Below, one piece after another: positions 16,591 through 56,266 of a stretch of DNA of 64,000 nt. Positions within the stretch are counted from its first letter, which is position 1, and each line of letters starts with the position of its first letter. Location: positions 32,001 to 96,000 of the forward strand of contig CAYZJA010000002.1 in the NCBI GenBank assembly GCA_964479005.1, in the 5' to 3' direction. The notes beneath the pieces are model-generated. The model searched no databases. It was not told where the DNA came from and saw only the letters and a program-made list of their open reading frames with translations. This DNA comes from an uncultured Candidatus Saccharibacteria bacterium (GTDB lineage Bacteria > Patescibacteriota > Minisyncoccia > UBA6257). The translations under genes and the position numbers were made by a program.

Positions 16591-16774
16591 TTTCTATAAC
16601 CTCCTTTTAAAAATCTTTTATTCTTTTTCTCTTTTATCTCTTTATAAACATTCTAAAGAAAAAAGATAAAATTCGTGTAATCCAATCGTCTTTCCGGGCG
16701 TACCTACAACGACTTCCCAAAACTCTGCTTATTCCTGCTGGCATCTTTTTCACTCCTTTCAAATTTTTTATTTT

Positions 16775-16978
16775 TTATCTTTTATCTTTCTTTACACCCT
16801 TATTGATAGACAACAATACTTCAATTAGCAATTCACATAAAATAATAAGTACTAATATGTCTGTCCATTTTTCCCATGCATCAGGAAAAAAACCAAAAAT
16901 ACTTAATGCTATGAATCCTATAGCTAAAATATGCAAAAAAGTAGCTATTGCTAAGAAAATCATATTTAATCTTTTCAT
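16775..16978 (-). CDS. Small membrane protein
   Basis: 67 aa with two predicted TM helices. Confidence 0.35.
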   Translation of the reverse strand: MKRLNMIFLAIATFLHILAIGFIALSIFGFFPDAWEKWTDILVLIILCELLIEVLLSINKGVKKDKR

Positions 16979-41420: not shown

Positions 41421-41442
41421 ACTAAAAGATATATTTTGTTTA

Positions 41443-41471
41443 CCCCGTTAGAAGTATTGTTTCTGACGGGG
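41443..41471 (+). terminator. Hairpin (ccccgttagaa / tttctgacgggg) downstream of 40737..41420
   Basis: About 11-bp stem with one mismatch. It is not followed by a strong T-run, so terminator function is uncertain. Confidence 0.35.
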
Positions 41472-41499
41472 TTGACATTCAAACTAATCTTGATAGAAT
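41472..41499 (+). promoter_or_regulatory. Sigma70-like promoter (TTGACA-16-TAGAAT)
   Basis: TTGACA at 41472-41477 and TAGAAT at 41494-41499, upstream of the LysM-M23 gene. Confidence 0.4.
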
Positions 41500-44659: not shown

Positions 44660-44718
44660 AATTTTAATACAGGCATTCTATCATAAAATCAGAATTTTTA
44701 AAAGTCAACCCCATGCTG

Positions 44719-44747
44719 ATTGACCTTACATAAAAATATTGATATTA
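44719..44747 (+). promoter_or_regulatory. Promoter for tRNA-Gly (TTGACC-17-TATTAT)
   Basis: The -35 element is at 44719-44724 and the -10 at 44742-44747. The tRNA starts 10 nt downstream. Confidence 0.5.
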
Positions 44748-47180: not shown

Positions 47181-47282
47181 ATTTATTTGTTTACAGTAAT
47201 ATATTTAATATAGTGGTTTTTAAATCTTTTGTCAAACCCCATGCCTTTGAAAAATAAAATAAAATTAGTATAATGAATTCAT

Positions 47283-51352: not shown

Positions 51353-52618
51353 TTAATCTTCTTTAATAATTTGTTTTGTTTTTTCTGTTTTTCTTTTGTC
51401 TTTTGTTTTATCAAGCTTCTTTTCTTCTTTGGTGTCAGCTACTCCTCCTTCTATTGTTTCTTCTGGCGCAAGAGCAGAGCGAATATCGATTTTCCAGCCA
51501 GTAAGTTTTGCCGCTAAACGAACATTCTGACCATTTTTACCAATAGCTAAAGAAATTTGATCAGGAGGAACGAATACTCTTACTTCTCTTTTCTCGGAAA
51601 TAATTTCGGCTTCTTTAATTTTTGCTGGACCTAAAGCAGACGCAACATATCTAGTTGGTTCTTCAGAATAAGGAATAATATCTATTTTTTCACCGTTTAA
51701 TTCGTCAATAATAGTTGTTACCCGTGTTCCTTTTTGCCCAACGCAAGCGCCTACTGGATCTACGTTTTCATCTTTGGAATCTACAGCGATTTTTGTTCGA
51801 TTTCCCGGTTCACGGGCGATAGATTTTATTTCTACTACTCCCTCACTTATTTCAGGAACTTCCATTTCAAAAAGATAAGAGACAAATTTTGGATGACAAC
51901 GGGAGAGCAGAATTATCGGTCCTCGCCCTTTTTCTTCTAATCGAAGAATATAGAATTTTTTTCTTTCCCCTGCTTGGTAATGTTCGCCTGGTATTCCCTC
52001 ATTGGCATAGAGGACGCCAAATGTTTTTCCTAGATCAACATAGATATTTTTTCTCTCTATTCTTTGGATGATTCCGCTTACTACCATTCCTTCTTTTTCT
52101 TTAAATTCTGAAAGGATTGTTTCTTTTTCTAATTCCTTGAGTTTTTGTAGGATAACTTGTTTGGCAGTTTGGGCAGCTATTCGGCTAAAATCGCTTTTTA
52201 CATCTAAAGGAGTAACTATTTCTTCATCGATTTTAACATTTGATTTTGTCTTTTTCGCTTCTTCTAAAAAGATATGCCTTTCAGGATTAAATTTGATTTT
52301 TCGATTCTCATCTTCATCAACTTCGTTTTCATTTTTCTTCCCCCCACTTTTTTTTGTTGAATCAATTTTTTCTTCTTTTTCTTCCTCCTCTTCAGCAATA
52401 ACAGAAGATTTATCAACAACAATTTTTACTTGCGAGAATTTTACTTGCCCATCATCAGGATTAATTTCTGCCCGAATAACTTGTGTTTTTTTGCCATATT
52501 CTTTTTTATAAGCAGCAGCAAAAGCGACCTCTAAAGCTTCGAAAACTTTTTGTTCCGAAAGTCCTTTCTCTTCGGCAATCTGACGAATTAATGGTTTTAA
52601 GGTTTTTAGATCTAACAT
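51353..52618 (-). CDS. nusA: Transcription termination/antitermination factor NusA
   Basis: 421 aa with an N-terminal domain, S1 and two KH domains. There is an acidic insertion and a K-rich C-terminus. Confidence 0.9.
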   Translation of the reverse strand: MLDLKTLKPLIRQIAEEKGLSEQKVFEALEVAFAAAYKKEYGKKTQVIRAEINPDDGQVKFSQVKIVVDKSSVIAEEEEEKEEKIDSTKKSGGKKNENEVDEDENRKIKFNPERHIFLEEAKKTKSNVKIDEEIVTPLDVKSDFSRIAAQTAKQVILQKLKELEKETILSEFKEKEGMVVSGIIQRIERKNIYVDLGKTFGVLYANEGIPGEHYQAGERKKFYILRLEEKGRGPIILLSRCHPKFVSYLFEMEVPEISEGVVEIKSIAREPGNRTKIAVDSKDENVDPVGACVGQKGTRVTTIIDELNGEKIDIIPYSEEPTRYVASALGPAKIKEAEIISEKREVRVFVPPDQISLAIGKNGQNVRLAAKLTGWKIDIRSALAPEETIEGGVADTKEEKKLDKTKDKRKTEKTKQIIKED

Positions 52619-52700
52619 TTTATTTTAAATTAATTTTATTAAGAAAGACCGCCTTTGGGCGATCTCATCGTTACTTTTAGTAGCTTATCTTGTTTTTTCT

Positions 52701-52830
52701 GAAAAGTCAACCCCGTTAGAGATTTAAGTTAGTTAATTTATTTTCAATGACCATAGCCGAGAGGCGGCTTCGCCTTATGGTTTTTATATTATTGAAAAGC
52801 TGGGTTGAATCTCTAACGGGGTCAACCCTC
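52701..52830. other. ~130-nt nested hairpin element (candidate structured RNA)
   Basis: The outer 15-bp perfect inverted repeat is accccgttagagatt / aatctctaacggggt. An 8-bp stem ttttcaat/attgaaaa sits inside, and an inner ccata..aggcg-gctt-cgcct..tatgg hairpin sits inside that. Confidence 0.6.
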
Positions 52831-52876
52831 CACGCTAAGATTTGTAATTATGGGATAAAAATATTAAAATAAAAGG

Positions 52877-53254
52877 ATGAGGATAGGAAGAATTGGTTCT
52901 TTTGGAGAAGATAAAGCAACAACTTATCTTCAAAATAGCCATTATCAAGTTATACAAAGAAATTTCCAAAGGAAGTGGGGTGAGATTGATATTATTGCAA
53001 AAGATAAAAAAACAAAAGAATTAGTTTTTGTAGAAGTTAAAACAAGACAATTAAATTATGCTTATAGTTTAAACCCAGAAGAGGCATTAACTTCAAAGAA
53101 GGTTCGTCGTTTAAAGCGGGCCTTTTTAAGTTATTTAATTCAATATAATTTAGAAGATAAACCCTGGCGCTTTGATTTTATTGCTATAGAAATAGATAAT
53201 TTTAATTCAGAACCAATAATTCGGCATTATAAAGATATATTTTTACAATTTTAA
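52877..53254 (+). CDS. yraN: YraN/UPF0102 family endonuclease
   Basis: 125 aa. YLQNSHYQVIQRNFQRKWGEIDIIAKD...VFVEVKTR matches the UPF0102 PD-(D/E)xK pattern. Confidence 0.75.
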   Translation: MRIGRIGSFGEDKATTYLQNSHYQVIQRNFQRKWGEIDIIAKDKKTKELVFVEVKTRQLNYAYSLNPEEALTSKKVRRLKRAFLSYLIQYNLEDKPWRFDFIAIEIDNFNSEPIIRHYKDIFLQF

Positions 53255-53264
53255 ATTAAATTGA

Positions 53265-53465
53265 CTTTGTGACACGGTAAACATTGTGTGAAACAAAGTG
53301 TGAAACAATATTAACAAAGCCATTTCCTAATTTTAGACTAAAAATCTGGCTTATTTATGGGCAAACCAAGTAATTTAGGCAGCTTTTATCTCTATTAAGC
53401 CAAAACCCTAATTAAAAATAGTTACTTTGTGACACGGTAAACATTGTGTGAAACAAAGCGTGAAA
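53265..53465. repeat. Two ~45-bp direct repeats (ttactttgtgacacggtaaacattgtgtgaaacaaag[t/c]gtgaaaca) separated by ~113 bp
   Basis: Copies lie at 53265-53308 and 53422-53465 with 44/45 identity. Each contains GTGTGAAACA sub-repeats. They sit between the yraN stop and the tRNA island. Confidence 0.9.
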
Positions 53466-53496
53466 CACCGTAAAACGGCGTGAAGGAAATTATTTG

Positions 53497-53681
53497 TGGA
53501 CTCAGCGAGAATCGAACTCGCGTCTTCGCAACTTGCCCCCACACCATTATATTAGTGGACCCGAGGGGAATCGAACCCCTATCTCGGCAATGCGAATGCC
53601 GTGTAATACCATTGTACTACGGGCCCGTATTTTATGGTGTGGGGGTAAAAATGCGGTATATTACCACTATACTATGAGCCC
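53497..53681 (-). tRNA. Split/interrupted tRNA-like gene (Gly-like body, G3:U70) whose anticodon arm carries a ~150-nt insertion containing a complete tRNA-Ala
   Basis: The 5' half at 53681-53651 is GGGCTCA-TA-GTAT-AGTGGTAA-TATAC-CGCAT. The 3' half at 53530-53497 is TTGCG-AAGAC-GCGAG-TTCGATT-CTCGC-TGAGTCC-A. The acceptor halves pair perfectly (GGGCTCA/TGAGTCC). The insertion is clamped by the 12-bp inverted repeat CCCCCACACCAT/ATGGTGTGGGGG. Confidence 0.5.
53556..53626 (-). tRNA. tRNA-Ala (anticodon CGC), nested inside the split tRNA-like gene
   Basis: Hand-folded. The acceptor GGGCCCG/CGGGTCC has the G3:U70 alanine identity pair. The anticodon stem-loop is CGGCA-TTCGCAT-TGCCG and the T-arm is AGGGG-TTCGATT-CCCCT. 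Confidence 0.8.
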
Positions 53682-55701: not shown

Positions 55702-55791
55702 AAGGCGATAGAGGATTGACCCGCACACCATAACGAATACTAAGTGCCTTTGGCGCTAAGATACGAAGTATGTGCTCGTTTGGTATCAGGG

Positions 55792-55819
55792 TTGACAAAT
55801 TATTTTTCTTTGTTATAAT
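55792..55819 (+). promoter_or_regulatory. Consensus sigma70 promoter (TTGACA-16-TATAAT)
   Basis: TTGACA at 55792-55797 and TATAAT at 55814-55819. Confidence 0.6.
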
Positions 55820-55822
55820 GGG

Positions 55823-55888
55823 AATGCTATCGTTTAGAGATATTAAATAGCTTGCTATCTAATTTCAAAAAGCGATAGCATTTTTTTT
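55823..55888 (+). ncRNA. Candidate small RNA / attenuator: 10-bp stem (aatgctatcg/cgatagcatt) enclosing an inner hairpin, followed by T8
   Basis: It starts about 4 nt downstream of the -10 element. The inner palindrome is atagcttgctat. The element ends in an 8-T tract at 55881-55888. Confidence 0.4.
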
Positions 55889-55957
55889 ACCGCAAAAATA
55901 TGAAGAGTAATCCTTCACATTTTTTAAATTCATAATATTTGGTATAATATAAATATT

Positions 55958-56266
55958 ATGAAAATAGATTGGAACAAAAAAATCGGAATGCAGGAAGAAA
56001 ATTACGGTTTAACGGTATTTGTTGGAGGGTTAATGCAAATAGTTTTTGGATTTAGTTTTGGTTTAATTCCTTTAGCCATTTTTATTATTACAGTAATCGC
56101 TTTTGTTTTAAGTTTGAAACATGACAGATACGAACCTTTTAGAAGAAGAATGAGTTTTATCGGTTTAGGCATTGTGATTACAATGGTTTTACTTTATTTT
56201 GTTTTTGGCTGGGTAGGAATTATTGGGACATTAGTAATGCCAAAATATGTTTCAATGTTAAGGTAA
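55958..56266 (+). CDS. Small membrane protein
   Basis: 102 aa with two long hydrophobic segments. Confidence 0.45.
   Translation: MKIDWNKKIGMQEENYGLTVFVGGLMQIVFGFSFGLIPLAIFIITVIAFVLSLKHDRYEPFRRRMSFIGLGIVITMVLLYFVFGWVGIIGTLVMPKYVSMLR

Follow-up and report, generated by a model that had tools for sequence, protein, structure and literature searches.

A hairpin between nusA and yraN in a Patescibacteria genome is very probably a MITE-type mobile insertion in the nusA promoter -35 box

We consider it highly probable that the 130-nt hairpin region between nusA and yraN in the window (by which we mean the whole 64,000-nt stretch of DNA analysed here) is a 111-bp non-coding mobile insertion of the MITE type, seated in the -35 box of the nusA promoter. 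Comparison of filled and empty alleles establishes that the element entered the TTGAC pentamer of that box and duplicated TTGA, and related copies elsewhere demonstrate that the family to which it belongs is mobile, duplicates its target on insertion and prefers TTGAC. The relatives of its NusA place the genome in Patescibacteria/Paceibacteria. The two genes, identified from their translations and Pfam labels, are nusA (51353-52618, minus strand) and a UPF0102/YraN gene (52877-53254, plus strand); the sole open reading frame that touches the element encodes 41 aa (52747-52872) and extends beyond it. The features on which the argument turns are as follows.

52711-52821, unstranded: MITE-like element of the family that we call A, 111 bp, with ends CCCCGTTAGAG...CTCTAACGGGG and no transposase; defined by empty orthologous sites and by copies elsewhere.
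52707-52710, unstranded: left target-site duplication TCAA (TTGA on the nusA strand), represented by a single GGGGTTGAC in empty alleles.
52822-52825, unstranded: right target-site duplication TCAA, from comparison with empty alleles.
52711-52727, unstranded: left terminal inverted repeat CCCCGTTAGAGATTTAA, from the repeat search.
52805-52821, unstranded: right terminal inverted repeat TTGAATCTCTAACGGGG, from the repeat search and pair counts.
52705-52710, minus strand: nusA promoter -35 hexamer TTGACT, which includes the duplicated target and abuts the element end.
52682-52687, minus strand: nusA promoter -10 hexamer TAAGCT, in the arrangement TTGACT-17-TAAGCT.
52761-52776, plus strand: apical GC hairpin GAGGCG-GCTT-CGCCTT followed by ATGGTTTTTA, terminator-like on the plus strand in a terminator scan.
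52645-52666, minus strand: terminator-like hairpin in the nusA 5' leader, GAGAUCGCC-CAAA-GGCGGUCUU plus a U-rich tail, outside the element and 48 nt upstream of the nusA ATG.

The insertion can be read from relatives in which the site is empty. There the sequence runs ...GGGGTTGACTTT..., as seen in L082/L083 (NusA 96% identical), L084 (92%) and L086-88 (90%), and more remote relatives (NusA 86%, 80% and 79%) are likewise empty, as are L225-L228. On the nusA strand, the window instead reads GGGTTGA/CCCCGTTAGAG...CTCTAACGGGG/TTGACTTTT, and BLAST breaks the alignment at window positions 52714/52835. The direct repeat in the window can be read as 4 bp (TCAA), 6 bp (GTCAAC) or 8 bp (GTCAACCC, 52706-52713), and the extra DNA can be described, equally validly, as 109 bp plus GTTGAC instead of 111 bp plus TTGA; the 4-bp duplication is nonetheless the only reading that fits all of the simple, non-nested copies found. 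Because TTGA was duplicated on insertion, one TTGAC keeps the right spacing to the -10 hexamer, and the nusA promoter survives. The hexamers and spacing of TTGACT-17-TAAGCT are identical in L082, L084, L086, L222, L225, L226 and L227, and are kept throughout the relatives examined. On the other side of the element, the yraN ATG (52877) lies 7 nt past a TAAAAT -10-like hexamer (TTGTAA-17-TAAAAT), which suggests that the yraN mRNA is leaderless; in L082/83 yraN appears disrupted, with only a 32-aa call.

The sequence of the hairpin matches its first description as three-tiered with a GC-rich inner part. The 15-bp perfect outer stem noted in the first-pass annotation is present, with ACCCCGTTAGAGATT at 52710-52724 (plus strand) and its exact complement at 52808-52822, and in an inverted-repeat search the arms, separated by 77 nt, reach 18 nt and are 94% complementary. 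Folded as RNA, 52695-52840 gives a minimum free energy of -56.9 kcal/mol on the plus strand (z -7.5; 0 of 200 shuffles equally stable) and -48.9 kcal/mol on the minus strand (z -5.9); folded as DNA, 52707-52825 gives -29.3 kcal/mol (z -8.3). The tiers comprise an outer stem of about 18 bp, middle stems of 5 and 10 bp, and the apical GC hairpin, which is present in every family-A copy and is the site of nested mini elements in L085 and L214. The 8-bp stem of the earlier description (ACCATA/TATGGT) forms in the DNA fold and is restricted to the window copy; other copies have ATAATC there. The long hairpin is two terminal inverted repeats pairing together with a largely self-complementary interior, a property of the DNA and not the sign of an RNA gene.

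A first alternative is a structured RNA with a function. It could be a leader or attenuator of nusA, the kind of cis-regulatory RNA that the first-pass annotation suggested beside a dispersed repeat, or the product of a small gene between nusA and yraN. Both strands are predicted to fold very stably, G-U pairs lengthen the stem to 25 bp on the minus strand, and a weak promoter-like match (TTTTAT-17-TAGCGT) precedes the stem. Against this, the hairpin is missing in the nearest relatives and inverted in others, with both orientations found at the nusA site itself, and its middle stem is peculiar to the window copy. Its 3' arm, on the nusA strand, runs directly into TTGACT-17-TAAGCT, so that the hairpin lies upstream of the nusA transcription start and of the conserved -35 and -10 boxes. 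An Rfam scan of the whole window at gathering thresholds returned tRNAs only, and a scan of 52500-53000 down to E = 10 returned noise far under threshold (miRNA, AaHKsRNA41 and Phe_leader). A leader RNA fails on these last two grounds, the position upstream of the promoter and the lack of an Rfam match, and we regard a functional RNA of either sort as having next to no chance of being correct.

The real conserved structure of the nusA leader is the separate small hairpin at 52645-52666. In about 26 of 36 Patescibacteria loci a hairpin followed by a T-run lies ahead of nusA, and the stem sequences differ and yet pair (GTTCGCC/GGCGGAC, GTCCGT/ACGGAC and GGACGCC/GGCGTCC, for example). NusA-autoregulated attenuators have been described in E. 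coli and B. subtilis, and the leader hairpin looks like one. Elsewhere in the window, a near-consensus promoter (TTGACA-16-TATAAT) at 55792-55890 on the plus strand is followed by a perfect-stem hairpin of about 65 nt and U8 (fold z -4.9); this stretch has no Rfam match, is 77% conserved in L212/L214/L219, stem changes included, and is a candidate small RNA gene upstream of a 102-aa open reading frame at 55958.

The suggestion of a dispersed structured-repeat family, by contrast with that of a leader RNA, is borne out: the element is bounded by terminal inverted repeats and target-site duplications, is present in some relatives and absent from others, and has copies at unrelated loci. A metagenome scan with one end and the core as the pattern (CCCGTTAGA-N26-34-CCATAGCCGAG) yielded 10 loci, six of them true copies on contigs of 0.32-0.36 GC and four of them chance matches on high-GC contigs. 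Two of the family-A copies share one 300-kb contig (L212 and L215), on which a family-B copy (L215:14441-14566) also appears to lie; L214 is the ortholog of the L212 site, with the copy present, and L220 is the L085 locus recovered again. Syntenic 21-kb loci supplied more copies, at the nusA site (L230), at the site corresponding to window position 44702 (L232/233) and upstream of clpP (L232). In all, there are at least five independent family-A sites, and occupancy differs among relatives at both the nusA and the tRNA-Gly sites. Viral contigs gave nothing related: the pattern CCCGTTAGA-N3-33-TCTRACGGG matched 88 stretches, which are ordinary phage terminators in unrelated contexts and about as many as chance predicts, and the 35 matches to the 15-mer CCATAGCCGAGAGGC are all unrelated (30-47 of 109 positions identical).

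Identities among the nine distinct family-A copies span 72-97% and form a star-like pattern, the window copy being 80-91% identical to the others. The terminal inverted repeats are preserved in all nine, and so is the foldback: in the eight distinct copies other than that of the window, 88% of stem cells are paired, as against 39-56% in slid controls. Six stem pairs have changed on both sides, four of them in helix 1, the outer stem that bears the terminal repeats (for example CCCATTAG/CTAATGGG in L230). Such paired changes in both terminal repeats are not demanded by a transposase model and call for an extra process; they may come from template-switch correction of quasi-palindromes.

Related copies occur in both orientations, nested in one another and at non-orthologous loci, and the nusA -35 box is a hotspot for them. 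It is occupied by family A in the window and in L230, by an inverted family-A copy with a nested mini in L085/L220 (NusA of L085 91% identical), and by a different 79-bp element (CCCCGTAGTG...) with an unrelated interior in L222-224. The nusA-site copies are 83-85% identical to one another, versus 91% to copies elsewhere; the site may have been hit once, with later inversion or loss, or several times, and the pairwise identities fit either history. At the same position, two species-representative genomes, L001 (2830-2929; the closest) and L006 (2842-2941), have a run of exactly 100 N directly before the nusA promoter or leader; masking, or an assembly gap at a hairpin, could account for the run, which makes L001 uninformative on occupancy.

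These orientations bear on a second alternative, an inverton, in which the 13-18-bp inverted repeats would recombine and flip the roughly 80-bp interior, so that protection against read-through transcription would pass from one of the two divergent genes to the other. Both interior orientations do occur between identical flanks at the nusA site (window and L230 versus L085 and L220) and again at the tRNA-Gly/dksA-like site (L221 versus L232); the terminator-like hairpin is asymmetric, and inversion of Correia elements is on record (PMC10969869). On the other hand, the orientation differs between genomes that are 9-25% apart and not within one population, no recombinase gene was found among the neighbouring genes, and the interior, at 80 bp, leaves little length for synapsis. 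The same data are explained if a transposon with symmetric ends inserted independently at a hotspot, and the third, unrelated element at the nusA site in L222 indicates that repeated insertion there does occur. Inversion would, in any case, be a property added to a MITE rather than an alternative origin for one. We therefore judge the inverton unlikely and retain the reading as a mobile insertion.

Identical bases, four of them, flank both sides of every simple (non-nested) CCCCG...CGGGG copy; they are TTGA in the majority of copies and TTTA in the family-A copy of L215, and in L085 they are TTGA, the terminal C:G pair having become T:A on both arms. By manual count there are 14 insertions with matching 4-bp flanks across five terminus types, 11 at TTGA, two at TTTA and one at TTAA; most of the matching flanks were flagged automatically, and inspection by eye supplied those of the sibling family (once shifted by one base) and those of L222, L215:14441 and L229. 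All families have CCCC...GGGG termini. A C follows the duplication in the TTGA and TTTA cases read, so the recognised site is at least TTGAC. At six of the seven family sites this TTGAC is followed, after 16-18 nt, by a -10-like hexamer. In the window, 76 of the 98 TTGAC pentamers are coding and 22 lie between genes, 13 of these being promoter-like; targeting of TTGAC combined with the loss of insertions into coding sequence is enough to explain the promoter association. We also considered whether GGGGTTGAC might be an extended -35 motif and rejected this, since other promoter-like sites in the window have no G-run and every GGGGTTGAC is either an element junction or a site occupied in a relative.

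Several hairpins and shared oligomers in the window can be placed in this context. The four stretches concerned are these.

44705-44725, unstranded: back-to-back -35 boxes (TCAA ... TTGACC) with 11 extra bases, CCCCATGCTGA, between them; from orthologous sites.
41443-41471, unstranded: 29-bp mini member consisting of the two ends only (CCCCGTTAGAAgtattgtTTCTGACGGGG), with flanks TTTA and TTGA; from orthologs.
55720-55791, unstranded: decayed sibling-family copy CCCGCACACC...GGTATCAGGG, with flanks TTGA and TTGA; from intact relatives elsewhere.
53536-53645, unstranded: sibling-family inverted repeats CCCCCACACC and GGTGTGGGGG around tRNA-Ala(CGC); from the inverted-repeat search.

The first of these accounts for the 11-mer AAGTCAACCCC that the first-pass annotation had found both beside the hairpin and upstream of the tRNA-Gly promoter. 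The 11-mer does recur, at 44702-44712, and with at most one mismatch it has three matches in the window, versus 0.6 expected (two of 100 shuffles reach three). It does not belong to the body of a repeat, and instead marks where a promoter -35 box (GTTGACTT on the other strand), the preferred target of insertion, meets the CCCC terminus of an element or remnant, and the two sites have it in common because a -35 box is read backwards into a CCCC element end. The stretch with the 11 extra bases at 44705-44725 probably goes back to a decayed element, and the shared AAGTCAACCCC stems from it. Among relatives, this tRNA-Gly/dksA-like site is unoccupied in L220 (GTCAATTGAC); L221 has a complete family-A copy there, L232/L233 have one in the opposite orientation, and L230 has a degenerate mini. 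The spacers at 47228-47250 and 44705-44725, both between divergent promoters, share the form GTCAA(A)-CCCCATGC-...-TTGA and may be what is left of yet another element type, one that ends in CCCCATGC; at the position orthologous to 47235, L232 has a full family-A-like copy (16710-16819).

The related hairpin reported near 41443 is likewise present, as ACCCCGTTAGAA-gtattgt-TTCTGACGGGGT at 41442-41472. To the right of this mini, TTGACA serves as the -35 box for the following gene; in L229 the orthologous mini is flanked perfectly by GTTGAC/GTTGAC, and the element is present in L230 and L232 too. The right TTGACA of the 55720-55791 copy is, in the same way, a promoter -35 box, and intact copies of its sibling family (CCCCCACACC...GGTGTGGGGG, flanks TTGA/TCAA) occur in L219, L215 and L214. 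The tRNA-Ala(CGC) gene (53555-53626, minus strand) lies exactly between CCCCCACACC and GGTGTGGGGG, and the same layout is found in L230; either a tRNA gene sits inside a MITE-like hairpin, or a hairpin formed around the tRNA. Just downstream of it, at about 53497-53535 on the minus strand, is a sequence like the 3' half of a tRNA (...GCGAGTTCGATTCTCGCTGAGTCCA) that neither ARAGORN nor Rfam calls, and short repeats at 53279-53308 and 53439-53467 lie in the 300-nt non-coding stretch after yraN; the tRNA-like piece and the short repeats may be debris of an integration event. A scan of all Patescibacteria loci for CCC palindromes added an element type CCCCGCACC... with TTTA flanks in L232, and another, CCCCGTACGAAG..., with TTAA flanks in the Yanofskybacteria genome L015. 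Finally, a CCCCACA...TGTGGGG hairpin of about 75 nt (L230:19640-19725) interrupts the nusA leader downstream of the attenuator hairpin and ahead of the start codon, which means that the sibling family can land inside a transcribed leader too.

A hairpin with a short fixed target also brings to mind a third alternative, a palindrome of the REP/REPIN kind or one derived from IS200/IS605, moved as single-stranded DNA by a Y1 (HUH) transposase and inserted 3' of a short target. IS608 and ISDra2 have the targets TTAC and TTGAT, and the target of the window family is similarly specific, a 4-5-mer (TTGAC, TTTAC or TTGAT). The long hairpin has a minimal 26-29-nt hairpin form as well, and paired stem changes are expected if the hairpin itself is recognised. 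REPINs and REP sequences (RAYT) and IS200/IS605-derived palindromes are, moreover, hairpin-forming, non-coding and intergenic, with long and minimal forms and a short target. Unlike them, the window family makes true duplications, which Y1 enzymes do not, as is evident from flanks that co-vary (TTGA/TTGA, TTTA/TTTA, TTAA/TTAA and CTTCG/CTTCG). The terminal repeats are symmetric, rather than distinct left and right subterminal hairpins, and the orientation of the interior relative to the asymmetric TTGAC is not fixed but random, split about 4:4 among site-lineages; nor was a Y1 gene seen. We accordingly hold this origin to be very unlikely, somewhat more so than the inverton. The related idea that the duplication is a cleavage site carried by the element itself, in the IS200/IS605 style, was rejected because the flanks co-vary on both sides and both orientations occur. 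An integron attC site was also discarded: attC has the inverse core RYYYAAC at the 5' end of the hairpin and the core GTTRRRY at the 3' end, and here the order is reversed, with GTTAGAG 5' and CTCTAAC 3' on either strand, each matching the consensus at 6 of 7 positions.

For the mobile insertion that we favour, a general pathway can be proposed. A transposase supplied in trans would move the element, cutting TTNA with a 4-bp stagger, mostly at TTGA followed by C, and recognising the CCC(C) termini. Such an enzyme would resemble the piggyBac/IS1380 type of DDE transposase, a type that is also capable of precise excision. The near-exclusive location in -35 boxes would then follow from the TTGAC target: about 87% of the genome is coding, so most of the TTGAC sites at which an insertion is tolerated would be -35 boxes. 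More speculatively, the GC hairpin and T-run might act as a one-directional terminator, and a copy upstream of a promoter could insulate that promoter. The nested minis do not fit easily with one enzyme of fixed stagger. In the L085/L220 copy a 26-bp mini is nested in the apical GCTTCGC, and nested minis have a CTTCG duplication, of 5 bp (or 3 or 7 bp), which such an enzyme would not make.

In about 190 kb of DNA from the clade (the window and related loci), no transposase with matching ends 0.3-3.5 kb apart was found. Two candidates were set aside: L219 43-3441, which as a full-length parent resolves into two separate elements around ordinary genes, and a 217-aa open reading frame of L232 (13506-14159), which has an N-terminal HTH_23 domain (E 7e-6) and a LAGLIDADG-like motif (FIAGLMIYWGEGD) and is not a DDE transposase. 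The latter frame adjoins the element at the tRNA-Gly/dksA-like site in L232 and is absent from the window. We can, tentatively, envisage a larger scheme, possible rather than probable, in which the families, of at least five terminus types (CCCC...GGGG, TTNA), together make up a palindromic MITE superfamily that specifically recognises the sigma-70 -35 sequence TTGAC, rebuilds the -35 box and plants a terminator-like hairpin upstream of it, a possibly invertible promoter-insulating module whose mover is perhaps piggyBac/IS1380-like and perhaps encoded outside the same genome.

For annotation, the result removes a false candidate nusA regulatory RNA and gathers several hairpins and shared oligomers in the window into one repeat family. 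It also shows that MITEs are, or recently were, active in ultra-small Patescibacteria genomes, in which mobile DNA is usually thought to be scarce. Since insertion takes place at -35 boxes, the copies mark promoters and are able to rewire them, and since the polymorphism separates strains at 90-96% protein identity, they make useful strain markers and are a likely cause of assembly breaks. If the targeting of -35 boxes is enzymatic rather than the outcome of selection, it is an unusual target choice for a bacterial transposon.

How, then, does the window family compare with known elements? Prokaryotic MITEs are defined as short (typically <500 bp) sequences without a transposase, with terminal inverted repeats of about 4-30 bp, target duplications and several polymorphic copies (PMC10969869). 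At 111 bp, with terminal repeats of 15 perfect bp (18 nt at 94%), a TCAA duplication and dispersed polymorphic copies, the element has all of the defining features apart from an identified parent IS. A literature search combining MITE with Patescibacteria or candidate phyla radiation returned nothing on MITEs in the phylum; the kind of element is thus a familiar one, which appears not to have been described from this phylum. A possible relationship to piggyBac is suggested by the 4-bp TTNA duplication, by 12-19-bp terminal repeats that start CCC...GGG, and by clean empty sites in relatives, which look like either precise excision or targets that were never occupied. IS1380 elements, as catalogued in ISfinder, have 'CC' ends and 4-5-bp duplications. 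The preferred target here is TTGA(C) and not TTAA, and the duplication at nested minis is of odd length, both unlike piggyBac. The target duplication of piggyBac is TTAA (PMC5381638), and IS1380 transposases are its distant prokaryotic relatives (PMC10140906).

The closer comparison is with the short palindromic repeats of other bacteria. Nested insertion, inversion (Correia), a terminator-like core (SPRITE) and residence in reduced genomes (Rickettsia, Coxiella) all have precedents among them (PMC10969869). Like Correia elements in Neisseria, RUP, BOX and SPRITE in Streptococcus pneumoniae, ERIC, QMITE in Coxiella and the Rickettsia palindromic elements, the window family is about 100 bp long and non-coding, with terminal inverted repeats and target duplications, and it shares with them a stable stem-loop, intergenic promoter-proximal sites, nesting and insertion in either orientation; its terminator-like core recalls SPRITE in particular, and its reduced-genome host the elements of Rickettsia and Coxiella. 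What sets it apart is an unrelated sequence, a host among the Patescibacteria (CPR), and a target that is the sigma-70 -35 consensus TTGAC, with a 4-bp TTGA duplication, where Correia elements target TA. That choice of the -35 box is the one unusual trait of the family.
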